Assembly (NCBI GenBank): GCA_016180575.1 | Contig: JACPAY010000003.1 | Coordinates: forward strand, 42,154-106,153 | Reading direction: 5' to 3' | DNA length: 64,000 bases | Origin: Candidatus Omnitrophota bacterium | GTDB lineage: Bacteria > Omnitrophota > Gorgyraeia > Aquiviventales > Aquiviventaceae | Shown: piece after piece, positions 1 through 51,647 of the stretch | How positions within the stretch are numbered: the first letter of the stretch is position 1 | How the letters are laid out: each line of letters starts with the position of its first letter | The notes under the pieces: model-generated | What the model was told of the DNA's origin: nothing | The model's database searches: none | What the model saw: only the letters and a program-made list of their open reading frames with translations | Program-made: the position numbers and the translations under genes

Positions 1-185
1 TTCTGGCGGGCGAGGGAAGGCAACTGGGGCAGGCTGATGAGCACGGCGACGCCGGTCTTGGCGATGAGAAACGGCAGGCGGAGGACGGTGAGGGCGCTCT
101 GTCGAAGCGGATCGAGAAAGATGAGGGCCGCCCCCACAAGGACGGCGCTCACGAGCCTCGCGCGGGGCAGATGGCGAGCGAACAT
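1..185 (-). CDS. mreC: Rod shape-determining protein MreC, N-terminal fragment (gene runs off the left edge)
   Basis: Own reverse-strand translation from ATG 185..183: MFARHLPRARLVSAVLVGAALIFLDPLRQSALTVLRLPFLIAKTGVAVLISLPQLPSLARQ. It has one N-terminal hydrophobic anchor and high GC3. AAGAGG lies just upstream. It sits directly downstream of mreB, the canonical mreBC order. It is absent from the ORF track because it is truncated. Confidence 0.5.
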   Translation of the reverse strand, partial: MFARHLPRARLVSAVLVGAALIFLDPLRQSALTVLRLPFLIAKTGVAVLISLPQLPSLARQ

Positions 186-192
186 GCCTCTT

Positions 193-248
193 CCGGTATC
201 AGATACCGGTATCAAACACGGAGTCGGTCGGCCGGTATCTGATACCGG
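193..248. promoter_or_regulatory. Pair of 17-bp perfect palindromes in the mreB-mreC gap (CCGGTATCAGATACCGG 193-209; CCGGTATCTGATACCGG 232-248)
   Basis: Read directly. The two boxes are reverse complements of each other and each is self-complementary. The same pair recurs at 26602-26642 and 32112-32152. Confidence 0.6.
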
Positions 249-250
249 GA

Positions 251-1333
251 CTACAGCTCGGCCCGGGTCGAAACGGCGATCCGGCTGCGGAGGTACCGGA
301 TGTTGTCGAGCCCCTTCCCCACCCCGAGCACCACCGCGGTCATGGGGCTGTCCGCGATGTGGACCGGCAGGCTGGTTTCTTCGGCGAGCAGCTTGTCCAG
401 CCCCCGCAGGAGCGAGCCGCCGCCTGCGAGCACGATCCCCCGGTCGATGAGGTCGGCCGAGAGCTCCGGCGGGGTCTTCTCCAGCGTTGAGCGGGCCGCG
501 TCCACGATGGCGCGGATCGGCTCGGAGAGCGCCTCGCGGACCTCCTCCGAGGTGATGGTCACGGTCTTGGGCAGGCCGGTCACCATGTCGCGGCCGCGCA
601 CCTCCATGGTGAGCTCCTCGTCCAGGGGGTAGGCCGAGCCGATGCGGATCTTGATCTCCTCGGCGGTCCGCTCGCCGATCATGAGGTTGTAGGCCTTGCG
701 GAGGTGCTCGATGACCGCCTGGTCCATCTCATCGCCCGCGATCCGGATGGAGCGCGAGACCACGATGCCGTCGAGGGAGATCACCGCCATCTCGGTCGTC
801 CCCCCGCCGATGTCGATGATCATGTTCCCGCCCGGCTCATGGATGGGCAGGCCGACCCCGATCGCCGCCGCCTTCGGCTCCTCGACGAGGAAGACCTCGC
901 GGGCGCCGGCACGCAGCGCCGAATCCCGCACCGCCCGCTTCTCCACCTCGGTGATGCCGGAGGGGATCGCGATGACGACGAGCGGCTTGTTGAGCTTCCG
1001 CGGCTGGACCTTCTTGATGAAGTAGCGGAGCATCGCCTCGGTGATCTCAAAATCCGCGATGACCCCGTCCTTCATCGGCCGGATGGCGGAGATGTTGCCG
1101 GGCGTTCGGCCGATCATGCGCTTGGCCTCGTTGCCCACCGCCAGCACCTGGGAGGAGCCCCGCTGGATGGCGACCACGGACGGCTCGCAGAGGACGGTCC
1201 CCCGCCCCTTGACGAACACGAGGCTGTTGGCGGTGCCAAGATCAATCGCGATGTCATTCGAAAACAGGCCGAGCACGAACTGGGAGAAGGTCCGGAGCGC
1301 GTCCGTCAGACGTGGGGGGAGGGGTGTCGGCAT
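251..1333 (-). CDS. mreB: Rod shape-determining actin homologue MreB
   Basis: 360-aa ORF with actin-fold motifs typical of MreB: [39 protein letters not shown] and [24 protein letters not shown]. It is followed by mreC. Confidence 0.97.
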
Positions 1334-4450: not shown

Positions 4451-5650
4451 TCATGTGATGACATCGGCTAGTGCGTCAATGAGCATATCGATATGCGCAT
4501 CGGTGTGGAGCGCCGTGACGCTCAGGCGCAGCCGGGCCGTGCCCTCCGGCACGGTCGGAGGGCGGATGGCCGGCGCCCAACAGCCCCGGTCCCAGAGCCG
4601 ACGGGCGACCTCGACCGCCCGTTCCGCTTCGCCCAGGATGAGCGGGAGGATGTGGGACGCTGTCCGATCGGCCGCGCCGGGCAGCCGCAGGCTCGCCAGC
4701 CGCTCCTGCAGCCGCGCCGCCTGGCGGCGCAGGACCTCGCGCCGCGCCGGCTCCTCCGCGAGCACGCGCAGGGCCGCGGCCGCGGCGGCCGCCACGGGCA
4801 CGGCAAGCGCCGTGGTATAGAGGAAGGCCCCCGCGCGGCTGTGCAGGTAGTCGATCAGGGGACTCGGCCCGGCGACGAACCCGCCTTGAGCGCCCAGGCC
4901 CTTGCCGAGCGTCGCCATATAGAGGAAGCGCTCATGGGGCACGCCCGCCGCCTCGGGCGTGCCGCGCCCGGTCGCGCCTGTGACGAACGCGCCATGGGCG
5001 TCATCCAGATAGAGGAGTGTGTCGTGGGAATCGGCCAGCTCCGCGAGCCCGGCCAGCGGGCAGGCATCCCCCTCCATGCTGAAGATCCCCTCGGTCACCA
5101 CCAGGCGGCGCCGCGCCCCGCCCGCGCGCGAGAGGAGCATGGCCAGGTGCGAGAGGTCGTTGTGGCGAAAGACGCGGAGGGTGGCCGGCGTGCGCCGGAC
5201 GGCATCGATCAGGCTTGCGTGCGCCAGGCGATCGACGAAGGCCACGTCGCGGGATGAGAGCAGGGCGCCGAGCGTGCCGAGGTTGGCCAGGTAGCCGCTG
5301 GGATAGACGATGGCGGCGTCCGTCGCGAACCATGCCGCCAGCGCCTCTTCCAGGCGGGCGTGCCACCGGGTCGAGCCGGCGAGCAGCCGCGAGGCGCGGG
5401 CGCCCACCCCCCAGTCGCGCGCAGCCGAGGCGGCGGCCTCGGCCAGCGCCGGATGGGCCGAGAGACCCAGGTAGTCGTTGGAGCACCAACTGATGAGCCG
5501 GCGGCCGCCGATCTCCACCCACGGGCCGTCGATCCGGTCCACCACCGTGAGGCGGCGGCGCAGCGCCCGGTCGTCAAGCGCCCGGAGCTCCTCAGAGAGC
5601 TCCTCCAGGAGCCGCGCCTGCGCCGAGGGGAGCGTGGAGGCGGATAACAC
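4451..5650 (-). CDS. bioF: 8-amino-7-oxononanoate synthase
   Basis: Contains WCSNDYLGLSAHPAL and the PLP-lysine context ATLGKGLGAQGGFVAG, at AONS-like length. The GTG start at 5650 abuts the upstream stop (TAGGTG). Confidence 0.92.
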   Translation of the reverse strand: MLSASTLPSAQARLLEELSEELRALDDRALRRRLTVVDRIDGPWVEIGGRRLISWCSNDYLGLSAHPALAEAAASAARDWGVGARASRLLAGSTRWHARLEEALAAWFATDAAIVYPSGYLANLGTLGALLSSRDVAFVDRLAHASLIDAVRRTPATLRVFRHNDLSHLAMLLSRAGGARRRLVVTEGIFSMEGDACPLAGLAELADSHDTLLYLDDAHGAFVTGATGRGTPEAAGVPHERFLYMATLGKGLGAQGGFVAGPSPLIDYLHSRAGAFLYTTALAVPVAAAAAAALRVLAEEPARREVLRRQAARLQERLASLRLPGAADRTASHILPLILGEAERAVEVARRLWDRGCWAPAIRPPTVPEGTARLRLSVTALHTDAHIDMLIDALADVIT

Positions 5651-25169: not shown

Positions 25170-26549
25170 CTAAAACATCGTGATCGTGAAGCGGAGCCTT
25201 CCCCCATAGCTTCCCGCCTTCGCGTCCGGCGGAACGCGCAGCCCGCAGCTGAGGGTGAACCGGTCCGGAGAGCCCCGGCTGTCGGAGGCATACAACGGGG
25301 TGTAGCCGATTGCCAACGGGGTGTCGGGGGCCGCCATGATGGTCCCGCGCTGAGGATCGTGCAGGGTGCAGACGAGGGCATCGGCGGGCAGCTGCTCACC
25401 CGTGTCCAGCACAAGCGAGTGATCCAGGCCGACCAACACCTGATAGGGCTGCCCCAGGTTGGTGCGGATCTCCACGATGAGACGCTGCGCCTCCGGCCGT
25501 CCCGCCCCGGACTCGGTGCGGAAGCGCAGGGCTTCCCCGGCGCCGTCCGGCGAGGTGACGGTCATGGTGAACACCTCCCGCACGAGGAGCTCGACCGGCA
25601 GCAGCAGCTCGTCGCTCGATGGCACGCCCAGCTGCATGAGCCGGACCCGCAGCGTCCCGCGATAGCGTCCTGCCGGCTGCTCAGGCGGGATGGCGGCGGC
25701 GTATGCGGCACGGACCAGCCCTCCGCCCCGCTCGTCGGTCACCAAGAGCTGGGGGGTTGTTCCCAGGGGCTGCCAGGGGCTGCTGCCTTGCGGCGAGGAG
25801 ACGCTGGATGCGATCGCGTCGGGGGAGAACGTGTCGCCGCGCTCGTTCGTCAACGGCTCCGCCAGCTCCTGCGTCAACTGCGTGGGCGAGGCCGTGTTGT
25901 TAACCACGGTCACCAGGAGCTCCGCCTCCGCGGAGCGCTGGCCCGGCTCGACTTCGCCAAGCTCCAGACGGCGCGGACCGGCGCCGGACCATTCGAGCCG
26001 GACCGCCGCCGCCACCTCGGCGCGCACGGTGAGCGTCTGCGTGTCGACCGCCCCTCCGGCCGCTTCGACGCTGAAACGCACCACCCCCCGATAGGAGCCG
26101 GCGGGCAGCGCCCGATGGGCCGGGATGGCATAGGCCACGACGACGGTGTCCGAGGTCCCATTGGGATCCGACACGAACAGCTCCTGCGAGTGGGGGGCGA
26201 CCGGCAGCACGCCCCCGGCGCTGCGGGTTCCGGTGAACCCCTGGGAGAGCTGCATGACCACCGCATCGTCCGGCAGGCGGCCGCCGCGCTCATTGGTCAG
26301 CGCGTCAAACTCCTGGTAGACGCGGTAGGGCGACCCCCCGCTGCTCGCGATGGCGAGCTCCAGCTCTTCGGTTCGCGAGGGCTCACCCGGCGCGACGGTC
26401 CCGAGGTCGAGGTCCAGGCCGCCCCGCACCACCCGGACGGTCAGCGTCACGGCGGCTGATGCGGCAGGGCAGCTGACGAGCAGGCCCGCGCTGGCAGCCA
26501 TGAGCAGCGCCGCTCCGACAGCCAGATGTGGTATACTTCGAGCGGACAA
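25170..26549 (-). CDS. Lipoprotein composed of three tandem fibre-subunit-like domains
   Basis: TTG 26549 gives MSARSIPHLAVGAALLMAASAGLLVSC with lipobox LVSC (alternative start ATG 26501). Three ~140-aa repeats each end in AGSYRGVVRFSV, AGRYRGTLRVRL or AGSYGGRLRFTITMF. The domains resemble 26773..27306. The track ORF upstream of 26549 is a shadow of the plus-strand gene. Confidence 0.75.
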   Translation of the reverse strand: MSARSIPHLAVGAALLMAASAGLLVSCPAASAAVTLTVRVVRGGLDLDLGTVAPGEPSRTEELELAIASSGGSPYRVYQEFDALTNERGGRLPDDAVVMQLSQGFTGTRSAGGVLPVAPHSQELFVSDPNGTSDTVVVAYAIPAHRALPAGSYRGVVRFSVEAAGGAVDTQTLTVRAEVAAAVRLEWSGAGPRRLELGEVEPGQRSAEAELLVTVVNNTASPTQLTQELAEPLTNERGDTFSPDAIASSVSSPQGSSPWQPLGTTPQLLVTDERGGGLVRAAYAAAIPPEQPAGRYRGTLRVRLMQLGVPSSDELLLPVELLVREVFTMTVTSPDGAGEALRFRTESGAGRPEAQRLIVEIRTNLGQPYQVLVGLDHSLVLDTGEQLPADALVCTLHDPQRGTIMAAPDTPLAIGYTPLYASDSRGSPDRFTLSCGLRVPPDAKAGSYGGRLRFTITMF

Positions 26550-26661
26550 TTCGAAAGGCAAACTATTCGAAAGAATAGGGCGCAAAGCCGCGAGTCCTCC
26601 ACCGGTATCAGATACCAAAGCGCGTTCGGTATCTGATACCGGAAGGGTTGTCGGGCTGCCG
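26550..26661. promoter_or_regulatory. Conserved leader/operator module, copy in the divergent region between two fibre genes
   Basis: TTCGAAAGGCAAACT (26550-26564), CGCAAAGCCGCG (26581-26592), palindrome pair (26602-26616, 26626-26642), CTGCCG (26656-26661). The same order and spacing occur on the minus strand at 32204..32092. Confidence 0.6.
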
Positions 26662-26772
26662 GGATCGTCGGAGGATCCCGTGATGAGCTGCGTGACGCCT
26701 GCCCGCTTTCGAGGGCGGGCATCATGGCATGGAGCGGAACCGCGATGGCGCGCCCACGATCGGGAGGCCGCC

Positions 26773-27306
26773 ATGCGGGCGCCGCGAACAGATCTCGGAT
26801 ACTGGCTCACCATCGCCGTCCTCGCGTTCCCCGCGGCCGCCTGCGCGGAATCGGACTCCAAAACGGTGCGCGTCTCCTGCACCATCCTCCCCCGGCTGGA
26901 GCTCTCGGTCACCCCGGAGACGGGCGAGTCGATCGCCTTCGGCGCCATCGAGCAGCCGGCGCCCGGCGAGACCACCGTCCGTTCGACCGCGGTGAAGCTC
27001 AACGTCTTCTCCAACATGGGACGCCCCTACCACGTGACCCAGATGGTCCGCAAGCCGCTCGCGACCCCTGAGGGGGCCGCCATCCCGGATGACCAGTTCC
27101 GCGTGCTGACCCAGGACGCCGCCCGCGGCCGGATGGGCGCGCCCCAGCCGACCCCGCTCGCTGCGGGCGTCCCCACGACCCTCTACACGTCGGATGAGCG
27201 CGGCAAAAGCGACGCCTTCTCGGCCCGGTACACACTGACCGTCACGCCCGACACCCCAGCCGGGGAGTTCGACACCGAGATCGTGTACACGGTGACCAGC
27301 CTCTAG
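26773..27306 (+). CDS. Single-domain fibre-subunit-like secreted protein (only convincing plus-strand gene)
   Basis: GGGAGG lies 6 nt before ATG 26773. Signal peptide MRAPRTDLGYWLTIAVLAFPAAACA. High GC3. Motifs NMGRPYHVTQ, LYTSDERGKSD and C-terminal AGEFDTEIVYTVTSL are shared with the triple-domain protein. Its stop overlaps the stop of the convergent gene (CTAG). Confidence 0.8.
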   Translation: MRAPRTDLGYWLTIAVLAFPAAACAESDSKTVRVSCTILPRLELSVTPETGESIAFGAIEQPAPGETTVRSTAVKLNVFSNMGRPYHVTQMVRKPLATPEGAAIPDDQFRVLTQDAARGRMGAPQPTPLAAGVPTTLYTSDERGKSDAFSARYTLTVTPDTPAGEFDTEIVYTVTSL

Positions 27307-30221
27307 CGGACCTCGGCCTCCACGTCGACCACGACCTCCTGCCTCGTCCCGTGAAGCTGCGGCGCGCGCCGCTCGCGCGGGCGCTGCAGGCCGGTGAGCG
27401 CCTCCTCCATGGCGGCCGCGCGCGCTGCCCGCCGCCGGCGCTCGCGCAAGACGTCGGCCACCACGTCCTGCATCAACACATCCCGCTCACCGAAGCGAAA
27501 ATCGATCGCGTCAAGCCCGGTCGGCTGCGGCGGCAGGTCCGCCTGCTGGACCGTCGCGCCGAGCGGCAGGTATCCCTCGAGCGGCGCCCCGCAGTTCACC
27601 GCCACCCGATGCCGCCCCCCCGCGACCCCCTTGAACAGGTACCGCCCATCCTCCTGAGTCGTGACGCGAAGCCGGTCGTCCAAACAGACCGGGACGTCCG
27701 GCAGCGCCGGCTCGCCATCGTATCGGCCGTCGCGGTTCGCATCGACGTAGACCCGCCCGCCGATGGACCGGTCGGCCAGGATGGGAAAGCCCGCCTCGGC
27801 CGTTTCCCCCTCCGCCAGCCTCCGCTCCTGCGAAAGCGGCGTGGCGGGCACGTAGCCGACGGCCAGATCCCCGAGCTGGAGGGTGGCGACGTGGGTCCCG
27901 GCCTCCAGCCCGCGAAAGGCGGCCCAGCCGGCTGAATCGGTCACGGCGGCCTTCCCATCCCGGAGCGCGACCCTCACGCCGGCCAGCGGGGCGTCGGCGG
28001 CATCGTAGGAGCCGTCATCGTTCACATCGATGAACACGCGGATGCGCAGCTCGGCCTGGGCGGCGAGCCCGAACCCCAAGGGCATCGGCGGCGGGTCGGC
28101 GACCTCGAGCACAAGCGAGCTGGGCGACGTGGGGACATAGCCCGGCGGGACGCTCGCGAGGTCCACGACGATCTCCAGGCGGTCCCCGCGCAGCCGGCCG
28201 AGGGAGAACCAGCCTGCGGCATCCGTCACCGTCTCGCGGTCCGGCCCTGCGCGCACCGTGACCCGCGGCAGGCCAGGCTCACCGTCCTGCGGCCGGCCGT
28301 CGCGGTTCGCGTCATGGTAGACCTGGCCGAAGATCCGCGCGCTGGGCTGCCAGGTGATGCCGGTATCGAACAGATATCGGACGCCGGTCGCGAGGTCCAC
28401 CTCGTATTCGCGGTCGGCGGGCCGCTGCCGCCTCAGGACTCGCGAGTCGACAAAGAGATAGCAATCCGGCGAAACGTCGTAGCGCAACCCCGCGTCCCAC
28501 GTCAGACGGTCCTCATCGGCCAGAAAGCTGCTCGGCGAGGTGGCCTCGGCGGTGAACGACGCGCTGAGGCCGCTGCGCAGGCTCAACGGGATCGTCTTCA
28601 GCCGGTGGAAATAGTTGAGGCTGGCCGTGGTCTCCCTCGGCGTGCTGACGGCGCCGGAGAGCTCTTCCTCCACCCGCGTCCATTGCTGGGCCACCTGCCA
28701 GGAGAGCTGCTCGGTCAGCGGGGCCCCCAGCCCCACCCGCACGGTGTGGCTGTCGAAATCCGAGCTCGGCGCGCTGACGCTGCGCAGGTCGCGGAACTGG
28801 TACTCCCCGAACACCGTCCCCTGCCCCACCAGGGGCATCGCGCCGAGCCGCTGCCGCAGGCTGGTGAGGAAGTGGGTCGTGTCGGAAGGAAACAGCCGGC
28901 CGAGGAGCTTCTGCCGGCCGTAGGTGGAGCTCCAGAGCGTCTTCTCGGTGAGGTCAAGGTCCGTCCCCAGCTCCCAATCCAGGTTCAGCGCGTCCGGCTC
29001 CTCGGGGTTATGGAACAGGGTGTCCCGATAGATGTCGGCCCGCTGGCGCCACCGCCAGGTCCGGAGCGGGTCAAAGCGAGAGATGAGCAGGACCCCGCGC
29101 TCGCCCTGGTCGGCCGAACGGCCCAGGAGGTTCTCGTAGCGCTGCGAGAGGTTCCGGTAGGCGGCGTCGACCGACAGCGTCCGGCGCCTCAGGAGCGACC
29201 GCAGCCGGTAGCCGTGCGCCTCCTCCTGGTTCCGGCCGACCTCCGCCCCGACGCCGAAGTCCGCGTCCGGCCAATACCAGAGATTGGCCTCCGCCGCCTG
29301 GCTGGTCTGGATGTCAACCCGATCCTCCCCCGAGGCGGCGCCGTAGGCCAGCCCCCACGTCCACGGGCGCTCCAGGTCCAGCAGCCGCGCCCCGGAGAGG
29401 AAGACGTCGTCCTCCACGTCGGCCAGCGTGGAGAGGCCGGTCGCGAAGCCGAAGCGCCGGCGGCCGTGGAAGACCTCGGCGGTGTAGGGTGCGACCGCGT
29501 AGTAGCGGAACAGGCTGCCCCGGATCGTGCTCTGCGGCAGCGTCAGGTCCGACGCGCCGGCGGTGGTGTCGCCGACGACCGCATCGAACCGCTCGAGCGG
29601 ACCGACGTCGCCGTCGGTCACGGCCGCGTACCAGGACGCGAGCTCCTGGCTGCTGTTGATGCGCTGGAATGCGGCCTGCCCGCTCAGCTCGCCGATGGGC
29701 GCCTCCATGTGGCCGAACAGCGTATGGTCGAACTGGGTCGTGGTGTGGAGGTCCGTCTCATCGAGCGCAGGACCCCGGCGCAGCGTCCGGAAGCGGTTGC
29801 GGTACTCGAACGTCAGGTGCCTGGCCCGTTCATGCGCCGCCCGCTGCTGCTCCGGAAGCGTGGGCCGCTCGATCAGGGGCTGGACGACCTGGAGGGTCCG
29901 GGTCAGGCGGCCCTCCGCCGTCCACACGTGGAGGAACGTCCGGCCGAATGACGCTGCCGACAGCTCCACGACGCCGGGCGACGCCAGCCGGGCCTCGACG
30001 ATGCCGGGCTGCACCGAGAGGACCCGGGTTGCGCCGGGGATCTGGACGGCCACGGTCTGCTGATACGGCACCTCGAGGACGGCCGCGTCAGGGACGAGGC
30101 GGATGGCGGCTGGCGGGGCGGGCGGGAGCGGCGCCGGGGCGTGCTGGGCGAACACGGGAGAAAGGCGCGGCGGGCCGGCGGCGACCAGGAGACAGGCGAG
30201 GGGCCATCGCCACGGGCGCAT
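27303..30221 (-). CDS. Large outer-membrane protein: CpaC-type N-terminal beta-sandwich + predicted beta-barrel + three SdrD-B/Cna-B-like repeats (usher position, non-usher sequence)
   Basis: Signal peptide MRPWRWPLACLLVAAGPPRLSPVFA. N-domain LVPDAAVLEVPYQQTVAVQIPGATRVLSVQPGIVEARLASPGVVELSAASFGRTFLHVWT. About 560 aa are aromatic-rich with an alternating pattern. Three repeats of the type GQVYHDANRDGRPQDGEPGLPRVTV...TDAAGWFSLGRL. Confidence 0.75.
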   Translation of the reverse strand: MRPWRWPLACLLVAAGPPRLSPVFAQHAPAPLPPAPPAAIRLVPDAAVLEVPYQQTVAVQIPGATRVLSVQPGIVEARLASPGVVELSAASFGRTFLHVWTAEGRLTRTLQVVQPLIERPTLPEQQRAAHERARHLTFEYRNRFRTLRRGPALDETDLHTTTQFDHTLFGHMEAPIGELSGQAAFQRINSSQELASWYAAVTDGDVGPLERFDAVVGDTTAGASDLTLPQSTIRGSLFRYYAVAPYTAEVFHGRRRFGFATGLSTLADVEDDVFLSGARLLDLERPWTWGLAYGAASGEDRVDIQTSQAAEANLWYWPDADFGVGAEVGRNQEEAHGYRLRSLLRRRTLSVDAAYRNLSQRYENLLGRSADQGERGVLLISRFDPLRTWRWRQRADIYRDTLFHNPEEPDALNLDWELGTDLDLTEKTLWSSTYGRQKLLGRLFPSDTTHFLTSLRQRLGAMPLVGQGTVFGEYQFRDLRSVSAPSSDFDSHTVRVGLGAPLTEQLSWQVAQQWTRVEEELSGAVSTPRETTASLNYFHRLKTIPLSLRSGLSASFTAEATSPSSFLADEDRLTWDAGLRYDVSPDCYLFVDSRVLRRQRPADREYEVDLATGVRYLFDTGITWQPSARIFGQVYHDANRDGRPQDGEPGLPRVTVRAGPDRETVTDAAGWFSLGRLRGDRLEIVVDLASVPPGYVPTSPSSLVLEVADPPPMPLGFGLAAQAELRIRVFIDVNDDGSYDAADAPLAGVRVALRDGKAAVTDSAGWAAFRGLEAGTHVATLQLGDLAVGYVPATPLSQERRLAEGETAEAGFPILADRSIGGRVYVDANRDGRYDGEPALPDVPVCLDDRLRVTTQEDGRYLFKGVAGGRHRVAVNCGAPLEGYLPLGATVQQADLPPQPTGLDAIDFRFGERDVLMQDVVADVLRERRRRAARAAAMEEALTGLQRPRERRAPQLHGTRQEVVVDVEAEVR

Positions 30222-31382: not shown

Positions 31383-32045
31383 TTAGAGGACGGTCGCCGT
31401 GAACGTGATGGTCGTCGAGTAGTTCCCGGCCGGCTGGTCCAGCGGGATGGCTTCGGTGGCGCCCAGGGCCGGATCGTCGGTGATGCCGTACGTCGCCGCC
31501 ATCGTGTTGCTCTGGCCGCCGCTGCTGCTGAAGAGCACCTTGTTGGTCGCGACGGCGCTGCCGCGGCTCCCGACCGAGGTCCCGGGCGGCAGCGGCTTCG
31601 AGGGATCTCCTCCGACCCCGGTGAGCGGAGTCACGATGAAGGCGCCGTTCGGGATCGTGCTCCCCCCGGCGCGGAGCGGCGTCGCGGTCTGCTTGATGGT
31701 GAACGGCCGCCCCTGGGCGTTGAGGCCGAAGAACACCTGGTACGCCTTCGTCGAGTTCAGCGCCCTGGGCTGCGGACCAATCGGCCCCGGACCGTCCGGA
31801 TCAAACGTGCCGTTGCTCGCCAGGATCCCGAACTCCATCGAGGTGACTACCGGGCCGATGGTGGTGCCGCCCCCGGCCGCTGGGATCAGCTCCGTGATCG
31901 TCACCGAAAAGGCGAGGTTGGCCTCCACCTGCGCGGACACCGGCACCACCGGGCCCGCGATGTCGACGGCCCACACGGGCCCTGCGGCCAGCGCCGATGC
32001 GAGCAGCGCTGCCACGCCATCGCGCACATGAGCCAGCTTGTTCAT
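31383..32045 (-). CDS. Fibre-subunit-like secreted protein (first gene of the cluster)
   Basis: GGAGG lies 6 nt before ATG 32045. Signal peptide MNKLAHVRDGVAALLASALAAGPVWA. Gly/Thr/Pro-rich beta protein ending in AGNYSTTITFTATVL, the same terminal motif as the other subunit-like domains. Confidence 0.75.
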   Translation of the reverse strand: MNKLAHVRDGVAALLASALAAGPVWAVDIAGPVVPVSAQVEANLAFSVTITELIPAAGGGTTIGPVVTSMEFGILASNGTFDPDGPGPIGPQPRALNSTKAYQVFFGLNAQGRPFTIKQTATPLRAGGSTIPNGAFIVTPLTGVGGDPSKPLPPGTSVGSRGSAVATNKVLFSSSGGQSNTMAATYGITDDPALGATEAIPLDQPAGNYSTTITFTATVL

Positions 32046-32091
32046 CGCGCACCTCCATGGGTTTCAGCAACAAAAACGCCGGGCCGCCTTT

Positions 32092-32204
32092 CGGCAGTCC
32101 GGCTATCCTCTCCGGTATCAGATACCGAACTCGCCCCGGTATCTGATACCGGAAAGCATCCGCGACTTTGCGTCCTCACCTCACGGTGAGTTTGCCCTTT
32201 CGAA
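32092..32204 (-). promoter_or_regulatory. Conserved leader/operator module, copy upstream of the first fibre gene
   Basis: Minus strand: TTCGAAAGGGCAAACT (32204..32189), CGCAAAGTCGCG (32172..32161), palindrome pair (32152..32136, 32127..32112), CTGCCG (32097..32092). Confidence 0.6.
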
Positions 32205-32247
32205 GGTCACTAACATCAAACTTTTTAAATTTACTTCTATACCTAAT

Positions 32248-43379: not shown

Positions 43380-43407
43380 AGTATAACCTAACTGGCGGCC
43401 CGGTCAA
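43380..43407 (-). promoter_or_regulatory. Candidate sigma70-type promoter for PilZ + ABC transporter (TTGACC-16-TATACT)
   Basis: Minus strand: TTGACC (43407..43402), a 16-nt spacer, TATACT (43385..43380), then AAGGGG before ATG 43350. Confidence 0.45.
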
Positions 43408-46400
43408 GCGTCACAACCGTGCCGTCCCTTCTTCCCAGGCCGCGTAGAGCGTCTGGTACTCCTCGCTGACGTCCGCGGGCGCCCCCACGAAGTGCAGCGG
43501 GTCAGCCGGATCCGGGGCCACGTAGGGCGGCCGGTCGCTGCGGCCGGCGGCGGCCGCGACCTCGAGGCCCGCTCCTCCCCGGCCGTTGCGCGCACCGCGA
43601 TAAGGGCTTGGTCGAGCCGCTGGAGGCGCTGGAATTCGTTCGCCGTAGGGATCGGTGCATTCGGCGCGGGCGGATTCGGTTGGAAGGCGGCGGGCAGCGG
43701 TTCCCTGAGGTTGATCAGGACATGCCGGCGCAGCATGCCGTTGGGTGCAAGCTGGTAGAGGAGTTCCCGATCGCGCGGCTCGTCGGGAATGAACGCGTGG
43801 CTGAGCACATCAAGCGCCGCATGGTAGGCGGCGGGGGCCAAGCCGCTCGCCACATCCGACTCCGCCTGCGCTCTGAGTTGATCCTGGAACTCCCCGTTGA
43901 GCCTCGGCAACTGGTCGAGAAAACCCACCGCCAGTTCAACCTGCTGCTCGTGGTTCTCTGTCTCCCGGATCTGTTGCGCAGTCTCCAGCAGGCCTGACAA
44001 GACGGCTTCGGGACTTCCCAGGATCCGTCGAAGGTCGTCGTCATCGGCCGAAGGCGGGCCGCCCCGCGAGGCCGGCAGCATGCCGTCCCATGAGCCACGA
44101 GGGCCAAGCGGATCGGCCACCTCCGCTTGGGTGAGATCCAGGAGGCGAAGCAACCGATCGATGGTGCGAGCTTGGCGGGCGTCCTTCCCAGGGTCCGCGC
44201 GCGTGTCCGCGAGCGCCCCCAGAACCGCCTGTTGGACCTCAGGCGCGAGCGCCACCCAGCGCAGCTCGTCAATCGCGGTGCGCAGCACATCGTCCGTAGA
44301 ATCCGGCTGGACAGTGCGAGGGCCGGGACCAAGGTTGGCGAGCACCGCAACGGCCCATGTCCCTTTGAGGCCCAAGAGCTGCAGGAGGCGATTGAGCGCG
44401 GTGTCGAACGAGAGGTTACCGCGTCGGACTTCGTGCATGATCTCCCGCGCTGGCGGCTTGAGGCGCTCGAGTGCATCGCGCTCTGCGATCGTGACCGGCT
44501 GCGCTGGTGCGCCATCCTCCGCGGTTGAGCTGCCGCTCGGGGGCTGCGCCGCCTGCCGGAGTCCGATTTGCCGCTGGCGCTCCAACTCCTTCGCAAACCC
44601 CTCCACGGACAGTCCTTGGTTCATGAAGGTCTTCAGAATTTCATAGACTTCGGCGGCCAGCTCAACCACCCGTTCCTGAGTGAGCGCTTCGACTTTATAG
44701 GTCAGCATCGGCGAGGTGTTCGAGGCGCGGATCAGGAACCAGCTCCCATCCTGCAGTGCGATGCGGACGCCGTCCACCTCAATGACGCCGTCATCAGGCC
44801 CCTGCACTTTCAGGCCGTCGATATCCCAGGCTCCGGCCGTCGGCTTGACCTGGCTGCCATACCGCGCCAGCGCGAGCGCCTTGGCCTCGTCCATAATCCT
44901 GAACTTAGCTTCATCAGCCACGGGGTCCCGGATATCCGTGGTCACCGGCAGGTTTGGAATCGCGACAAAGACTTTTGTCCCGTACCGGTCCTGCCGGGGA
45001 AGCGAAACCGCAAGGCTCTGGGCCTCGTACTCGGCCGCCGTATCGAGGATTGACAGTCCCAGCACCGCCGTAAAGATGCCGTCGTCAATCTTGATGTCCG
45101 GATGGGTCGGGTCGGTCGCATAGAAGTAGTGCCCTGACGCCTCGGCGGACGTATAGGTGTTGATCAGCCGCTGGATATCCGGGTCGTCCGCCAACCCGTG
45201 CCCGGCCGCGATCTTCCTGATCTCGGCAATCTGCTGGCGCACGAACTTCCGATGGCTTGGGTAGCCGGCTGGAATGAAGAGCCCTCCCACTCCAGCATAC
45301 CGGTCGAAAAGCTGCTCGACGATTCCGCTGGCCCGCACGTCCAGCGCAAGCTTCGTCGTGTGGCCCACAGTGCGCAGCTTGGCGATGGCCGGCAGATTCT
45401 CGAGGATGAACCGGTGGTAGAGCGCCACTAGCAACCGCTCCGGAGCGATGGGCTGTCCTTGCTCATCCACGAAGGCGCTGCGGTCGCCGTCGCCATCCAG
45501 CGAGATCCCGATCCATGGCACCTCACCCGGCGCCAGCGCCGCGTTCAGCTCCCGGACTTTCTCGCTGAGGTGCCGGACCCCGCTCTCGGCATACGGCGCC
45601 TCCACACTATCCCGGGACGGGTCGGCCGGGTGGTTCGGAAACCGCGGGTGCGGCTCGCTGAACAGCTCCACCACCTCCACCCCGCGACGTCTGAGCAGCT
45701 CCACCATCGGCCTGGCGCCGACCCCATTGCCGGCATCTACGACGACCCGATGGCCGGGCTTCAGTTGGGGCAGCGCGGCGTCGAGCGCATCGATGTACTC
45801 ATCCACGAGCCTGTCCAGAACCGTCAACGTCCCCTCGGGGGCATTCCGCCGCCAGCTGTGCGTCTCGATGACCTGCTGGACATCAAGCAGCGCCCGTCCA
45901 AAGACGGCGCTGGGAATGCCCTCGGGGGCAGGTTCTCCAGCACTGTTTTGCTTTTCGGTGATTTTCAGCCCGTTGGCGTACCACGGATTGTGAGAGCCGC
46001 TGATTTGAATCGTGAGGTCATAGCCGTCGGCCAGCGCCTTGCGGCTGGTCGCCCCGGTCGGCATGAACTCGTCGGTGGTTTCGACGTTCATGCCGACCGA
46101 CCGCAGCCCTTCGATCACCGCCTGGCGCAGGGCGGGGCCGGACTCGCGGTGGTCCATCGTGATCAGGGCCCGCGCGCCGGCCCGATGGCGGGACCCCAGC
46201 GCCCTCGCGATGAGCCGCGCGCCATCCGGGGTCAGGGTCACCTGGTTGTACTGGCCGCGCTCCTCCGGCGCGTCCGAGGCCTGTCCGCGGATGTCGTAGG
46301 CGAAGCCGCGGCCGAAGAGCACATCCGGCAGGACGACGGTAGAGGGATCATCAGGAATAGGCTCGACAGCTTCCCCTTCCTCGTCTTCGATTGGCGGTCC

Positions 46401-49400
46401 GCCGCCGCTCGGGGGCTGCGCCGGCAGGCCGAGTGTCCTGGCATGCAGCGCTGTTGTGAAGGTTTCGACCCTGGCCTCGTAATCGCCGGCGGCCAGGCTG
46501 ATATTGAAGTACAGCGACCCGGGAGGAGCGGTCAGGAGACTTCGTTCCGCATTGGTTAACCCATAAATCTGACCGGCAAACGGACTCCTCTCGACGAACT
46601 CCCCGGTCGCAAGGAGCGCCGCTCGGACATCGGCCGGATCGAATCCGTGCCGTCTGGCCGGTTCGTCAACCTGCACTGGATGCCACCATTGCTTTGGACG
46701 TTCGTCGGCTTCGCCGGGTTTCAATGAACGCAGGTTGAACTCAAGTTCCACGACGAAGTCTCCCCAGGCTTCAAGGACCGCATGTTGCTCATCCGCAAAC
46801 GTTCGGAGCGACGTCAGACGCTCTAGCTGTGCCGGCTCAGACGCTCGTTCAGCAGCGGGAATGCCGGTGGTGTCGAGCCAGCTAAGAAGCGCCCTCAGGT
46901 ACCCGATCCGAGCTGCCCAATCGCTCAATCCGCTCAAACAGTAGGCGGCCGCATGGGTAGGGCCACGCGGGTCATCCAGAGCCGCCTTGACGGTGAGCGG
47001 CACCAGCACTTCTCCTGTGACGGCCTCTCTGGCAGATGCCAGCTGAATCGCTTGCCGCTCGATTGGAGCAGGTCTTCCGCCGGAATGCTCCCGGTTGAAT
47101 GCATCGGAACGGCGATCGAGCGCCGCCGACACGTCCAGGACGTAGTCCAGGACGCTCTCGAGAGGCGCTTGCTGCCGCTCAAGCTCCTCCACGAAGGCCC
47201 GGACGAGCGTAGCCGTGATGTACGCGGCGCTGCGGTGGGCCGTCGCAGCCACCTCATCCGGCGCGGTGTAGTAGTCGGACTTCGCGTAGGGGATGTATGA
47301 CACATTGCCCGGGGGCTGCGCCGGCTGGTCCCCGCTGCCGCCGCTGATCGTCCGCGTGAGGAAGAGCGAGTCGCCGGGATGCAACCGGGTCTCCGCGAGG
47401 TTCGCATCGGGCGCCAGGGTCTCGATGGCGCCGCCCGCCCGCTCAATCCCCAGCACGTAGCTCTCTTCGATTTTAGGGCGACCCTCCTGAGGGAACCGCA
47501 CGCCTTTCATCCCTGCAGGGAGATAGTCATCCAGGGCGGCCTCGACCGTTGTCTCTCTCGTGATCCGCCACTCCCAATCGCCGGTACGCCCAGCCGCCAG
47601 GGACGGGACGTCCGCAGCGCCGTCTGGCTGGTTCACTTCGCTTCGAGGCACCAACAGCCGGGCCACCTGGCTCTTCCAGGCCGATAGCTCATTAGCCGTA
47701 GGCTGTCCAGGACCGGCGGCCTCGGCGTGCTCCAAATCCGCGAACCGCTGCACCTCCAGCTTCTCCGTCCACTCGCGATCCGCATCAGACACGCGCGCGC
47801 CGCCTCTTCGCCGCGCGAACGGCAAGCCGCCGCCCTCAAGGTCGTAGGTCCCATCATCGTTTCGGCGTGCGACCACCGTTGGGTAGCCTATCAAGCGAAT
47901 GCGTTCTGAGTGGGTCGGGTCCGGCTCCCACTCGTTCGGATTGACGTAGTCGCCATTTGAAAAGCGGGCGGGCAGCACCGTCACGTGAACATCACCGACC
48001 CGCTCTCCTGCGACAGGTTCAACATAATCGAAATAGGCGCCAGCGATGAGGCGATCCTCAAGCGGACTCAAGGCCACCGACTGGCCCCAGTACTTCGGCA
48101 GGGTCTCCAGCATCCAGTGGAATTGAGGAGAAGAGGGGTCCTCCAGTGCGAGGTACTCGACCGAGGTCACATCGAGCGAGACCCGTGCCAAGAGGATGGG
48201 CCCATGCGTTGAGGTTCCAAAGACAACGTATCTGGCGGCCGGAACGTCGTCCTTGAGGTTCAGGAGACGATCTAACTGTGAGGCGGATGACTCCTCGCGC
48301 CAACGAAGCGGGGCGACATACAGCTGAATCGGCTGCCCCTTGAAGGAGAACTCACGGGTGTCGTCCTCCACGTTCATCAAGGCGGTCACGCTCCCCGGTG
48401 GGAGGGGAGGCTGCGCCGGTTCGCTCTCCTCGGTGATTATGGCCTCAACCGTTGAGCCTGTGCCCCGCTCAAAATTCATGGTGAAGGGGCGGGGGGAGGT
48501 GGCCAAAACGAACCGCACCGGCTCCCTGAAATGAAGCGGGATGGCATCCAGGATTGCGCCGCCCAGCCGCTCCCATTCATCCAACGATGCGATGGGCACA
48601 TATTCCGCCATCCGAACGAAGCCGTGGGGAAGCGTCCCCTCCACGACGCCGGGAAACGTGGTTTTGACCGTGGCGAGACCCTGTTGTTCCTCCGGCGTGC
48701 TTTCAACCATCGTCACCCGCGCCAGGATGATCGGGCCATCGCCCTGAGTCCCAAACACCATGAACTCACTCGGGACTCCCAACCGAGGGTCTTCAGAGGA
48801 AATGCCAAGCAGCGCACTCAGGAACTGCGTGTCCTCTTCGCTCAGTCCGCGCAAGGTCGCAGCGACAAATGCGGAACGTAGATCGATCTCTTGGCTGCGG
48901 ACCGGCGTCACAGCCTCTTCCAACACGGCCCTGACAGTCTCGGGCGCCCTGCCGCCAGGTGGCAATGCCGGCAGGCCGCCGCCCAGATCGCCGAAGAGGC
49001 GGAACCCGTCCGCGTCCTGCTGGATGGCATTGAAGATCTGCCCCCGCACCTCGTACTGCGAAGCGTTCGCAAAGGCCCGCTTGATGTCGCCGGCGGTCGC
49101 CGCAGGCGTTACTTGAATCGACAGGTGAAGCGGCCCCCCGTCCTCCAGCAACAGCGAATCCAGCCAAATGGCGACCGGGCCCGCCGCCAGAGACGGCGTT
49201 TCTTGGTAGGTCACCTTGACCCCCTCGCTGACTGCGAGGCGGTCAAGGACCGTTCGGAAGGTTTCGTCCCAGCCAGCTGGCCGCCTCATGGACGAGACTG
49301 TAGACCCCGCCTTGGGGCCCGCCACGCCGGGCAGGACATAGATCACCTCGCCGTCATCGAGCGGCGTGTCGCGGGCGGCGGGCTGCAAGCGGCCCTCCCG

Positions 49401-51647
49401 CCGCACCAGCACCAGCGTGTCAGGCTGCCACCGTGCTCCGAGCAGCTCGCCGGCGGTCATGTCGTCATCATCGGCGACCAGCCGATAGCCCAGCATCCGC
49501 GATGTCCGGTCCTTGAGTCGTACCGTCACGGCGTCGCCGTTGACCTGGGCCTCAGCTGGCTGCTCCATCGCGGGATCGAACGCCAGACGGATCAGGCCGT
49601 CATTGGACCACTGCTGGAGATCGCGCAAGGTGATGCCGGCCTCTGGCGAAAACCCTGCGGCCTTGCCGAAGCGGCGGAAATCGCGGCTGATTACGGTGCG
49701 CGCGAAGGCCAGCAGCCCCTCATCGATGAGACGCTCCCGCTCTCCGACCCCGGTGGCGGCGTTCGCCTTGGCCCAGAGCTCCTGAAAGAACTGGTACTTG
49801 ACCTTGCCGGTGACCGCGTGCCGACCCCCCTCATCGAGGAGCTGGAGGAGCTGCTCGACATCTGAATCCTCAGCGGCCCCGTCGAACGCCTCGAACAGCA
49901 TCCAGTCGGCCTCGCGCAGGATCCGCAACTCCTCGGCGAGCTCCTCCTCATAGCTCCTGATCTCATTATCGTGCGAGAGCTCATGGAGGAGCCGCTCGGC
50001 GACGATGCGACTGCCCACGATCCGTCCGCCGCCGCGGTGGCCCACGACTCGCTCGCTGTTCTCGAAGAATCCCAGGTCGATGGCGATGACCGGATGCCCA
50101 CGCTTCTCATCGTAGTACCTGGCCATGTGGTTCCCGCCGAGAATGATCGGCTCGACGAAGATGAACTCGATGCGGGCGTTTTCCGGGCGCGCCAAGAGAG
50201 ACGCGACGAACTGCTGCATGCCCCGGCGCCATTGGAGACGGCGATTGGCATAGCGGAGAGCCCGCTGAACCCAGACCTTCAACTCATCGCCTTCGTCTTC
50301 GTCCTGCCCCTGAAGCCAATCCAGCCATCCCCCGAGCCCGGCACGACGAAGGGTGACATCCGCTTCCGGGCGGAGGACGACGGAGTGGAGCTGATGCTTC
50401 CTGACAACGGATAAGGGCGGCAGGTCCGCTTGAGTGCCCCAGCTTTTGCCCGAAGAGGCGTGCCCGGCAGCGGCCCGCTCCAGCTCCCGGTGCACGAACG
50501 ACCGGGCGGTGTTGTCCGTGACGAAGGCGAGGAGGAACGTCCGCCACTCCGCATCGCTTGCGCCGGGCGGGGGCAGCTGCTCAGACTGTGCGCCGGCCAG
50601 GGCGACCAGTTCATAGACTTTATCCCGCAGGTGATGGGCCGTGCGCATGTAGGGATTCTCTGCGAGATCAGCCTCTTCCTCTGCCGCGTCGTACTCCTCC
50701 TCTGGACCGTATGCGGCCGCAGACTCATTCGCCGCAAGATCCGCATCCAGAGCCGCCGCTTCCAGAATCGAGAGGTGCCGCTCAACCGTGCGGCGCCATG
50801 CCTCGCTGTCGGCCATCGCCGTCGGCGCGGAGGCCTCTCTCACCAGCGCGTCAACAAGGCCTGGCTCAAGACCGGCTCCGATGAGCCGGGCCGTCGTGGC
50901 GCCAGGGCTCAAGCGGCTCAGGTGCCGCAGGGCGAGGGCCTCATAGAGGGTGGTCTGCTGGGCTTCCCGTTGGTCGGCCGGCAGGCTGTCGAGCGCCCGC
51001 TGCACAAGCCCATCAACCAGAAAGCGGTCCGTTTCGTTCAGCGTGTCAGGAGGAGGGATCCCGAGGGTATCGAAGATGGTGCGGGAAGCGGTTGGCTCTA
51101 CATACAGCTCCAGCGCCTCCGCCGGCGTCGCGGCGAGGACGACCTCGAACCACGCCGGGTCGAGCAGCCGCCGGGCGTTGTCGGTCCCCATGCCGCCGAG
51201 CGAGGCGCCGAGATCCGCGAGGACCTGATCGAGCCGCGCGCGGGCCTGGGTTTCCGTGGTGAGGTCCGGATACGCGGCGGTGGGGAACCACAGGATGAGC
51301 CGGCGCCGGCCGCCCTGGGCGCGGTAGTTCCGGAGGGCGGCGGCGGTTTCGGGCTGGCGGAGCAGGCGGACATCCAGGACGACCGGGCGGTCGCTGTTCA
51401 GCGCCGAGGGCGTGAACTGGTGCCGGAGCGCGGGGATGGCGTCTCCGAGTTGGAGGAAGGCGCGCTCGACGTACTGCAGGGCCAGCGCCTGGCGCGTCCC
51501 ATTGGGAGCGGAGGCGAGGGGGCGCAGGGCATCCAGCTCGCCCATCGCGGCGACCGCGGGAACGCCCATGGGGAAGCTGACCGCTGCCGCGATGGCGAGA
51601 CTGACCGCGCGCGACGCCCGGGACCCTCTCCAGCGCAGCCAGGTCAT
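43404..51647 (-). CDS. Giant 2747-aa protein with embedded phosphohexomutase domain (otherwise uncharacterised)
   Basis: High GC3 and a normal, diverse amino-acid composition throughout. Signal-like N-terminus, HELSH motif, internal duplicated modules, and a complete PMM/PGM domain. The last ~60 codons look out of frame (see finding). Confidence 0.85.
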   Translation of the reverse strand: MTWLRWRGSRASRAVSLAIAAAVSFPMGVPAVAAMGELDALRPLASAPNGTRQALALQYVERAFLQLGDAIPALRHQFTPSALNSDRPVVLDVRLLRQPETAAALRNYRAQGGRRRLILWFPTAAYPDLTTETQARARLDQVLADLGASLGGMGTDNARRLLDPAWFEVVLAATPAEALELYVEPTASRTIFDTLGIPPPDTLNETDRFLVDGLVQRALDSLPADQREAQQTTLYEALALRHLSRLSPGATTARLIGAGLEPGLVDALVREASAPTAMADSEAWRRTVERHLSILEAAALDADLAANESAAAYGPEEEYDAAEEEADLAENPYMRTAHHLRDKVYELVALAGAQSEQLPPPGASDAEWRTFLLAFVTDNTARSFVHRELERAAAGHASSGKSWGTQADLPPLSVVRKHQLHSVVLRPEADVTLRRAGLGGWLDWLQGQDEDEGDELKVWVQRALRYANRRLQWRRGMQQFVASLLARPENARIEFIFVEPIILGGNHMARYYDEKRGHPVIAIDLGFFENSERVVGHRGGGRIVGSRIVAERLLHELSHDNEIRSYEEELAEELRILREADWMLFEAFDGAAEDSDVEQLLQLLDEGGRHAVTGKVKYQFFQELWAKANAATGVGERERLIDEGLLAFARTVISRDFRRFGKAAGFSPEAGITLRDLQQWSNDGLIRLAFDPAMEQPAEAQVNGDAVTVRLKDRTSRMLGYRLVADDDDMTAGELLGARWQPDTLVLVRREGRLQPAARDTPLDDGEVIYVLPGVAGPKAGSTVSSMRRPAGWDETFRTVLDRLAVSEGVKVTYQETPSLAAGPVAIWLDSLLLEDGGPLHLSIQVTPAATAGDIKRAFANASQYEVRGQIFNAIQQDADGFRLFGDLGGGLPALPPGGRAPETVRAVLEEAVTPVRSQEIDLRSAFVAATLRGLSEEDTQFLSALLGISSEDPRLGVPSEFMVFGTQGDGPIILARVTMVESTPEEQQGLATVKTTFPGVVEGTLPHGFVRMAEYVPIASLDEWERLGGAILDAIPLHFREPVRFVLATSPRPFTMNFERGTGSTVEAIITEESEPAQPPLPPGSVTALMNVEDDTREFSFKGQPIQLYVAPLRWREESSASQLDRLLNLKDDVPAARYVVFGTSTHGPILLARVSLDVTSVEYLALEDPSSPQFHWMLETLPKYWGQSVALSPLEDRLIAGAYFDYVEPVAGERVGDVHVTVLPARFSNGDYVNPNEWEPDPTHSERIRLIGYPTVVARRNDDGTYDLEGGGLPFARRRGGARVSDADREWTEKLEVQRFADLEHAEAAGPGQPTANELSAWKSQVARLLVPRSEVNQPDGAADVPSLAAGRTGDWEWRITRETTVEAALDDYLPAGMKGVRFPQEGRPKIEESYVLGIERAGGAIETLAPDANLAETRLHPGDSLFLTRTISGGSGDQPAQPPGNVSYIPYAKSDYYTAPDEVAATAHRSAAYITATLVRAFVEELERQQAPLESVLDYVLDVSAALDRRSDAFNREHSGGRPAPIERQAIQLASAREAVTGEVLVPLTVKAALDDPRGPTHAAAYCLSGLSDWAARIGYLRALLSWLDTTGIPAAERASEPAQLERLTSLRTFADEQHAVLEAWGDFVVELEFNLRSLKPGEADERPKQWWHPVQVDEPARRHGFDPADVRAALLATGEFVERSPFAGQIYGLTNAERSLLTAPPGSLYFNISLAAGDYEARVETFTTALHARTLGLPAQPPSGGGPPIEDEEGEAVEPIPDDPSTVVLPDVLFGRGFAYDIRGQASDAPEERGQYNQVTLTPDGARLIARALGSRHRAGARALITMDHRESGPALRQAVIEGLRSVGMNVETTDEFMPTGATSRKALADGYDLTIQISGSHNPWYANGLKITEKQNSAGEPAPEGIPSAVFGRALLDVQQVIETHSWRRNAPEGTLTVLDRLVDEYIDALDAALPQLKPGHRVVVDAGNGVGARPMVELLRRRGVEVVELFSEPHPRFPNHPADPSRDSVEAPYAESGVRHLSEKVRELNAALAPGEVPWIGISLDGDGDRSAFVDEQGQPIAPERLLVALYHRFILENLPAIAKLRTVGHTTKLALDVRASGIVEQLFDRYAGVGGLFIPAGYPSHRKFVRQQIAEIRKIAAGHGLADDPDIQRLINTYTSAEASGHYFYATDPTHPDIKIDDGIFTAVLGLSILDTAAEYEAQSLAVSLPRQDRYGTKVFVAIPNLPVTTDIRDPVADEAKFRIMDEAKALALARYGSQVKPTAGAWDIDGLKVQGPDDGVIEVDGVRIALQDGSWFLIRASNTSPMLTYKVEALTQERVVELAAEVYEILKTFMNQGLSVEGFAKELERQRQIGLRQAAQPPSGSSTAEDGAPAQPVTIAERDALERLKPPAREIMHEVRRGNLSFDTALNRLLQLLGLKGTWAVAVLANLGPGPRTVQPDSTDDVLRTAIDELRWVALAPEVQQAVLGALADTRADPGKDARQARTIDRLLRLLDLTQAEVADPLGPRGSWDGMLPASRGGPPSADDDDLRRILGSPEAVLSGLLETAQQIRETENHEQQVELAVGFLDQLPRLNGEFQDQLRAQAESDVASGLAPAAYHAALDVLSHAFIPDEPRDRELLYQLAPNGMLRRHVLINLREPLPAAFQPNPPAPNAPIPTANEFQRLQRLDQALIAVRATAGEERASRSRPPPAAATGRPTWPRIRLTRCTSWGRPRTSARSTRRSTRPGKKGRHGCDA
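44640..46330 (-). other. alpha-D-phosphohexomutase (PMM/PGM) domain inside the giant ORF (approx. residues 1775-2335)
   Basis: All four signature loops are present: ISGSHNP (45984-46001), SLDGDGDRSAF (~45480-45497), SAEASGHYF and LIRASNTSPML. Domain borders are approximate. Confidence 0.85.

Follow-up and report, generated by a model that had tools for sequence, protein, structure and literature searches.

The 64-kb window (the whole stretch of DNA analysed in this work) contains three inverted pairs of a 17-nt palindromic box that very probably belong to a family of REP/REPIN elements. We propose that the boxes are REPs (repetitive extragenic palindromes) and that the inverted pairs are REPIN-type doublets, i.e., non-autonomous elements spread in trans by a RAYT and persisting where their hairpin is harmless. 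As read from the sequence, the family is associated with RAYT genes in related loci, is mobile, is present in a lineage-restricted manner, and is placed in RNA stems. Published REPINs are inverted pairs of REPs whose spacer is less well conserved, and they are spread by RAYTs present in single copy (PMC3116915, PMC3337134, PMC5581495). The present work identifies such a REP/REPIN family, together with a RAYT clade, in poorly studied, uncultured lineages.

Repeat boxes and inverted pairs in the window

The box has the form CCGGTATC[A/T]GATACCGG, and its six copies in the window constitute the three inverted pairs listed in Table 1. The window was searched for CCGGTATCNGATACCGG with up to three mismatches, and 100 shuffles served as the background. 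Seven matches were found against 0.27 expected, a number attained in none of the 100 shuffles; the seventh match, at 37280, is unrelated and has three mismatches. The 13-nt core GGTATC[A/T]GATACC is exact in all six boxes. The window contains neither decayed copies of the box (at up to two mismatches) nor solitary boxes. Its GC content is 69%, and nearly all of its genes are located on the minus strand, as judged by third-position GC.

In every pair the central base is A in the first box and T in the second, so the two boxes are reverse complements, and their centres lie 39, 24, and 24 nt apart at sites 1, 2, and 3, respectively. Each pair is predicted to fold as RNA into a helix of 15-17 bp, with energies of -33.1, -25.6, and -30.3 kcal/mol for the pairs alone at sites 1, 2, and 3; site 1 with its flanks folds at -47.3 kcal/mol (z = -4.5). 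As single-stranded DNA, a single 17-mer forms a 7-bp stem with a 3-nt loop (-5.3 kcal/mol). All three sites lie between ORFs, and at none of them is the element followed on its 3' side by a T-run, as would be expected of an intrinsic terminator.

The preliminary description of this DNA had reported twin 17-bp palindromes at three sites as a departure from chance, with all six copies intergenic, box centres 39 bp apart in the mreB-mreC gap and 24 bp apart at the two other loci, and boxes that are reverse complements able to form a 15-17-bp hairpin; all of this agrees with the results given above. It had also described an orientation mark, CCGG followed by AAG or AAAG on the side facing the downstream gene. 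The mark is found at sites 1 and 2 and fails at site 3, where the riboswitch and the gene are on the minus strand and AAAG is on the far side.

Two other features were considered and rejected. Assignment of the transcribed strand from G-U versus A-C mismatches near the loop was contradictory, site 3 agreeing with the riboswitch strand and site 2 disagreeing, and it was dropped. An SD-like GAGG after the second box, seen at all window sites and in L045 (described below), represents in part the complementary strand of riboswitch stems and shows no conservation from locus to locus.

Table 1. Features at the three repeat sites of the window; the number in brackets after each box gives its mismatches to CCGGTATCNGATACCGG.
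Feature	Position	Strand	Description and basis
Element 1	193..248	-	box 232-248 (0), 22-nt spacer 210-231, box 193-209 (0); pattern search
mreB	251..1333	-	gene upstream of element 1; Pfam PF06723, 493 bits
mreC, 5' part, leaves the window	1..185	-	gene downstream of element 1, ATG at 185; synteny, full-length homologue in L141
Element 2	26602..26642	+	boxes 26602-26618 (2) and 26626-26642 (1), 7-nt spacer; distal tip of the second hairpin of the aptamer (Rfam alignment)
c-di-GMP-I aptamer RF01051, host of element 2	26547..26663	+	57.0 bits, gathering score 35
Element 3	32112..32152	-	boxes 32136-32152 (0) and 32112-32128 (1), 7-nt spacer; distal tip of the second hairpin of the aptamer
c-di-GMP-I-GGC aptamer RF03167, host of element 3	32089..32205	-	59.3 bits, gathering score 59
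Terminator-like GC hairpin and U-run	32066..32104	-	directly after aptamer 3, not part of the repeat; read from the sequence

Element 1 in the mreB-mreC gap

The gap between mreB and mreC is 65 nt long; element 1 starts 2 nt past the mreB stop codon and ends 7 nt ahead of the mreC ATG. The gene following mreB is identified as mreC because synteny is conserved in relatives, in which the gene order is murA-mreB-mreC(PF04085)-mreD-pbp2-rodA. With mreB recognized by Pfam and mreC by synteny, the original assignment of this gap was correct. Among named homologues, those closest to this MreB are from Candidatus Omnitrophota MAGs; a partial sequence with 99% identity is labelled candidate division NC10. 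In the E-value mode of Rfam, site 1 gave sub-threshold matches to miRNA-like hairpins only.

The element is restricted to a narrow group of relatives at this position. In syntenic relatives with 86-91% MreB identity, the mreB-mreC gaps measure 26-40 nt, apart from one of 188 nt, and no boxes are present in these gaps or in about 70 kb of those loci. Element 1 is shared by L141 only, whose mreB is 94.7% identical to that of the window. Between the window and L141, the boxes are identical at 34/34 positions and the spacer at 20/22 positions, at a divergence of about 5%, which is too little change to show selection.

Element 1 would be co-transcribed with mreB and mreC and would fold as an RNA helix. 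At the base of such a helix, only about 9 nt would separate the stop codon from the start codon, and this proximity probably preserves or modulates translational coupling, with termination-reinitiation proceeding despite the 56-nt insert. The helix could also shield the mreB segment against 3' exonucleases. With stop codon, hairpin, and start codon so closely spaced, the locus is a simple system in which to study whether REPINs preserve or modulate translational coupling. In one relative without the repeat (L170, 3113-3152), the mreB-mreC gap contains a different hairpin (AACGGC..GCCGTT) and then a T-run; attenuating structures may be a solution that recurs between these two genes.

Elements 2 and 3 at the tips of c-di-GMP-I riboswitches

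Sites 2 and 3 had been regarded as leaders of fibre genes. Both are indeed intergenic, but they are located inside c-di-GMP-I aptamers, and site 2 lies between divergent genes. In the Rfam alignment, the twin boxes extend the second hairpin of both aptamers by 33-37 nt at its distal end. Aptamer 2 is located upstream of a previously unlisted plus-strand gene (26773-27306). Aptamer 3 is followed by the terminator-like hairpin with its U-run and then by the gene 32045-31383. This hairpin is likely the expression platform of aptamer 3, because its 5' arm and the aptamer's 3' strand overlap, and the arrangement suggests an ON switch in which ligand binding would prevent termination. Within the riboswitches, the helix of the element would merely lengthen a helix that already has a hypervariable tip, and its effect is probably neutral. 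REPINs nesting in riboswitch tips inflate the aptamers by about 35 nt and lower covariance scores to or below the threshold, which matters for riboswitch annotation.

Both riboswitches precede genes for small secreted proteins, in an area comprising the genes 26773-27306 (plus strand), 25170-26501, 31383-32045, and 27303-30221 (all minus strand). None of these small proteins matched a Pfam family. The 177-aa product is paralogous to the repeats of the 443-aa product (35% identity), and the adjoining 972-aa protein has T2SS-T3SS_pil_N, SdrD_B, and CarboxypepD_reg domains. Judging from their predicted products, the riboswitch-led genes look like a c-di-GMP-controlled surface-fibre or pilus-like cluster. 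The 443-aa gene perhaps starts at a TTG near 26585 and not at the ATG at 26501 (window 26502-26590, minus strand); the longer N-terminus gives the signal peptide a charged n-region, but it crosses an AT-rich stretch encoding the 5' part of the plus-strand riboswitch. The genes 26773-27306 and 27303-30221 are convergent, and their stop codons overlap by 4 nt (27303-27306). Giant minus-strand ORFs are also present in the window, at 43404-51647 (2747 aa) and 53279-63985 (more than 3568 aa).

Copies outside the window

A scan of GTDB (596 Gb) for the exact 17-mer, in which about 70 matches are expected by chance, returned mostly single matches at about chance level, and only those in L045 and in Gaiellaceae loci are relevant. 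In L045, a MAG labelled Planctomycetales, a twin pair is located between murA and rpsP. Gaiellaceae MAGs carry many copies of the 17-mer (at least 10 exact ones in a single MAG), each at the tip of a longer palindrome. A cluster of matches in Dehalococcoidia/Chloroflexia (L013, L016, L022, L034, L041, and about 17 more) was rejected as the coding sequence of one conserved gene; this gene is MetK-like by eye, and the match is a codon coincidence unrelated to the repeat. Searching the literature for the motif string gave nothing relevant.

Metagenomes were scanned for two exact cores separated by 6-36 nt, which yielded 56 loci; the requirement for an exact core biases any conservation test on this set. 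By central base, about 40 pairs are of the A,T type and 7 of the T,A type, and a dozen are same-orientation arrays; the inverted arrangement characterizes about 47 of about 60 metagenome pairs and all three window sites. The arms are conserved, while the spacers, 0-29 nt long, show no sequence relationship to one another. The outer flanks of 78 half-elements are weakly T-rich on both sides, with a weak T at -1/-2. Neither a GTAG tag nor a general CGTC tag appears in this profile; the Gaiellaceae form and a few twins do have a CGTC-like junction. Between co-directional genes lie 31 of the 50 inverted pairs, and 11 lie between divergent genes, these counts being approximate since they come from a crude GC3-based ORF caller that mis-picked some frames. 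The most common setting is a tight co-directional gap with the stop codon 2-15 nt before the element or inside it and the start codon 1-46 nt after it. The core is common to contigs of 54-71% GC and to the actinobacterial (Gaiellaceae) MAG.

Riboswitch tips are occupied in other genomes as well. L141 comes from sample Ga0114945, as do about ten other GC-rich contigs bearing the element. It contains two pairs in 12.4 kb, and the one at position 7578 caps the second hairpin of a c-di-GMP-I aptamer, as confirmed by Rfam. For the box-bearing aptamers in L159 (position 1038), L165, and L130, Rfam gave no confirmation, and these are by-eye calls from the consensus blocks GGCAAAC...GGACG...CAAAGCC...AGCCGGGUUGCC. 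In total, at least six c-di-GMP-I aptamers have the box helix at the same structural position, some of them identified by eye only.

These contexts bear on the proposal, put forward in the preliminary description, of an operator shared by cell-shape and fibre genes. In such a scheme, the boxes would be duplex-DNA operators of a dimeric transcription factor (TetR or another helix-turn-helix protein) co-regulating mreCD and the fibre-like genes. The unit does have the shape of a dimer operator, with two 6-nt half-sites around one central base (6-1-6, as in tetO-type operators of dimeric repressors), and many pairs are located just upstream of start codons; moreover, the low-GC pair L149/L161 has TTGACA in its spacer, and arrays with a 25-nt period lie ahead of the RAYT gene in L155/L180. 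Nevertheless, box centres are separated by anything from 17 to about 46 nt, and the distances show no helical phasing. The outer CC/GG is conserved but the two bases beside the spacer are variable, so that a single box lacks symmetry of its own. The gaps between co-directional genes in which most pairs are found leave no space for a promoter; other pairs occur in riboswitch helices, at 10 nt from tRNA genes (before or after them), within a gene (one copy), or on the flanks of transposase genes. The lack of solitary boxes in the window also argues against an operator, as does the orthologous mreB-mreC gap of close relatives, which is without the element; absence from such orthologous sites had itself been named beforehand as an observation that would count against the proposal. 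Context, spacing, mobility, and transposase linkage all misfit dimeric-repressor operators, and we consider this explanation very improbable. The regulatory link between cell-shape and fibre genes was a tempting false lead, which is now removed. The other possibility raised at the outset, a REP-like structural element, is supported in the more specific form of a REPIN-type doublet tied to RAYT (Y1) transposases.

Association with RAYT transposases

Translation of the neighbouring sequences revealed that Y1 transposase-like proteins adjoin the boxes, and tblastn located Y1_Tnp genes beside boxes in L131, L155, L159, L122, and the Gaiellaceae locus L027. Twin elements lie on both sides of the RAYT gene of L131 (676-107), box arrays lie on both sides of that of L155/L180, and the RAYT homologue of L027 has exact 17-mers around the gene at 4735 and 5379. 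The L131 protein matches the NCBIfam model NF047646 'REP-associated tyrosine transposase' with 97.7 bits (cutoff 80) as well as Pfam PF01797 (Y1_Tnp). Its sole PDB match is E. coli TnpArep 4ER8, with which the HUH motif (HVH) and the catalytic Tyr (RYVHLNP) are aligned. The homologues in L159/L122 reach 53.9 bits, below the NF047646 cutoff, and have QLH instead of HUH. The 64-kb window contains no RAYT homologue; a putative RAYT, being a Y1/HUH tyrosine transposase, would act in trans from elsewhere in the genome and would recognize the element as a folded single-stranded DNA hairpin.

In a test independent of the motif, homologues of the L131 RAYT, many of them named RayT by JGI, were collected by protein similarity, and five contigs were scanned. 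The homologue with 72% identity (L180) is flanked by the same boxes. At 64% identity, one homologue (L178) has the same core in its flanks, in arrays of GTATCWGATAC, and another (L179) has related but different 6-1-6 palindromes of the GGATCAGATCC type. The flanks of the homologue with 55% identity (L181) contain GGTGTCAGACACC- and GGTGCCWGGCACC-type palindromes, and the one with 51% identity (L182) has no flanking repeats. On these sequence comparisons, the graded likeness of the repeats relative to RAYT identity is the pattern predicted by REP-RAYT co-evolution.

The arrays directly upstream of the RAYT start consist of 3-4 boxes with a 25-nt period (L155 3333-3420 and 4369-4431; L180 3412-3500 and 4448-4510). 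In L155/L180, a duplicate box array is also located beside a HicAB toxin-antitoxin pair.

The inverted terminal arms, their conserved outermost bases, and the short variable interior could also describe a conventional MITE of a DDE-type insertion sequence, in which the pairs would be terminal inverted repeats enclosing almost no internal sequence. In the present family, however, the arms themselves are palindromic, and the transposase genes beside the boxes are solely of the Y1/HUH (RAYT) type. No target-site duplication is visible in the flanks, as judged by inspection rather than by statistics; Y1/HUH (RAYT) transposases make no target-site duplications. An origin of the pairs as a DDE-type MITE is thus extremely unlikely.

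Mobility and persistence of the elements

Movement of an element can be followed by comparing L159 and L122, which are about 90% identical around their RAYT-like gene. A 58-nt element with the 5-nt flanks GGGTC/ACGTT occurs in both, its spacer being the same apart from one substitution. In L159 it lies 72 nt upstream of the RAYT-like gene, at a place that is empty in L122, and in L122 it lies inside the gene. In an alignment of L159 1-830 with L122 10440-11230, the RAYT-like gene of L122 is seen to be interrupted by its own REPIN, and the RAYT-like gene of L159/L122, as its sequence reads, may be a decaying transposase. A second comparison concerns an orthologous c-di-GMP-I aptamer upstream of a pilT-like gene, which carries the box hairpin in L141 and unrelated sequences of other lengths in L174, L176, and L170. 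Filled and empty aptamer tips therefore identify the element as an insertion into, or a replacement of, the hypervariable tip.

The positions of the pairs could alternatively result from selection by the host. The pairs would then be cis-regulatory RNA hairpins bound by an RNA-binding protein or an RNase and acting in processing, stability, or translation, with the RAYT link being secondary or an exaptation. REP RNA hairpins affect mRNA stability (PMC3733652, PMC3479197), and at many loci the helix is located 0-30 nt from a start codon and spans the stop-to-start gap exactly. Moreover, the same orthologous gaps are filled in separate loci, namely the gap between helicase and lipoprotein genes in L115, L117, and L145 (60-70% GC), with unrelated spacers, and the position ahead of response-regulator genes in L120 and L134; the shared structural position in the six or more c-di-GMP-I aptamers points in the same direction. 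Against this, it is the sequence and not the pairing that is conserved, with no compensatory changes in the core, though the search demanded an exact core. The loops are unconstrained, which is atypical of RNA-protein recognition, close relatives function without the element in the same gaps, and the same element changes position between L159 and L122. As the explanation of the family, host-selected RNA hairpins are therefore rather improbable, while a selected host RNA element as a secondary layer is possible.

Under the REPIN interpretation, copies would persist only where a perfect hairpin is harmless, such as the mreB-mreC gap and the free distal tips of riboswitches. Some observations speak against this interpretation: the window has just three copies, none of them decayed, and no RAYT homologue, no GTAG/CGTC tag is present, and the core is distributed more broadly than species-specific REPs. 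Likewise, the many copies directly before starts, some of them in orthologous gaps of diverged genomes, could reflect a host function instead of neutrality.

Comparison with known repeat systems

Features by which REPs are recognized are found in this family. The unit is a short palindrome able to fold as a stem-loop; a cognate RAYT flanked by the same repeats occurs in the related loci L131, L155/L180, L178, and L027, and not in the window; placement is extragenic and mainly between co-directional genes; the units form inverted doublets; the enzyme belongs to the RAYT clade; and the elements are mobile. The density in the window is three pairs in 64 kb.

The closest known counterparts are the REPINs and REP-BIMEs of P. 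fluorescens SBW25 and E. coli (PMC3116915, PMC3337134, PMC5581495, PMC3479197), which are likewise short extragenic palindromes, usually paired in inverted orientation so that a doublet folds into a single long hairpin; their arms are conserved, their spacer is less so, they prefer co-directional gaps, and their transposase gene is flanked by the repeats. REPs and REP dimers have been reported in gaps between co-directional genes (PMC3733652; PMC3116915), REP dimers mostly between co-directional and convergent ones, and the repeats bordering Y1 genes are either REPs or untagged and self-complementary (PMC3733652). The transposase resembles TnpArep/RAYT in its HUH motif and catalytic Tyr and in its matches to the NCBIfam RAYT model and to 4ER8. 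In contrast to REPIN/REP-BIME, the present family has no 5' GTAG tag, and its arms are 15-17 nt long with a near-perfect 6-1-6 core. The elements measure 34-63 nt, with spacers down to 0-7 nt, whereas REPINs measure about 70-110 nt. The core is common to contigs of diverse GC content and to Gaiellaceae, and several copies are embedded in riboswitch stems, which also distinguishes the family. A compact, untagged family with a core conserved across phyla is a possible test case for hairpin recognition by RAYTs.

A second related group is TIRYT ('TIRtron'; Di Nocera et al. 2013, PMC3733652), whose Y1 transposases are bordered by inverted repeats that lack GTAG, are partly self-complementary, and occur as dimer families as well. 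The likeness consists in untagged self-complementary repeats flanking a Y1 transposase and in moderately abundant dimers or clusters elsewhere in the genome. The present transposase is set apart from TIRYT by its model score, which passes the NCBIfam RAYT equivalog threshold, and on inspection of the sequences no shared GGGGWSAS motif was noticed.

The Gaiellaceae form (L002, L005, L027, L054, L073, L106, and others) has the identical 17-mer CCGGTATCAGATACCGG in many copies per MAG, also flanking a RAYT homologue. It differs in that each 17-mer caps one longer palindrome (ggacACGT-box-ACGTgtcc) and in that the copies are about 105-117 nt apart in the same orientation, with no tight inverted twins.

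REP-type palindromes in riboswitch stem tips

On different contigs, at least seven c-di-GMP-I aptamers have a palindrome of one of two REP families (GGTATCWGATACC and GGTGCCWGGCACC) at the tip of their second hairpin, and this recurrence is the feature that deserves follow-up. One may speculate that the REPINs are more than passengers, either because the Y1 transposase targets the loops of DNA hairpins on single-stranded DNA or because the helix has been co-opted as a protein-binding module (for RAYT or a host factor on RNA); we consider this doubtful. If true, loop targeting would amount to a structure-directed insertion rule, and a co-opted helix would tune riboswitch output and translational coupling across the whole lineage.

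The second palindrome family, GGTGCCWGGCACC, has the same 6-1-6 shape and was observed in L120 (215-265), L138, L163, L145, L159, and L181 (at about 9950 and 10560); no GGTGCCWGGCACC palindromes occur in the window. It occupies the tip of the second hairpin of the c-di-GMP-I aptamer in L120 and flanks a RAYT homologue in L181. Some c-di-GMP-I aptamers of this lineage have an extra hairpin between GGACG and CAAAGCC (L174 15210-15351, L176, L170, L165 10800-11010, and L130 134-300). Because Rfam scores such aptamers weakly or misses them, riboswitch counts in these genomes are likely underestimated.
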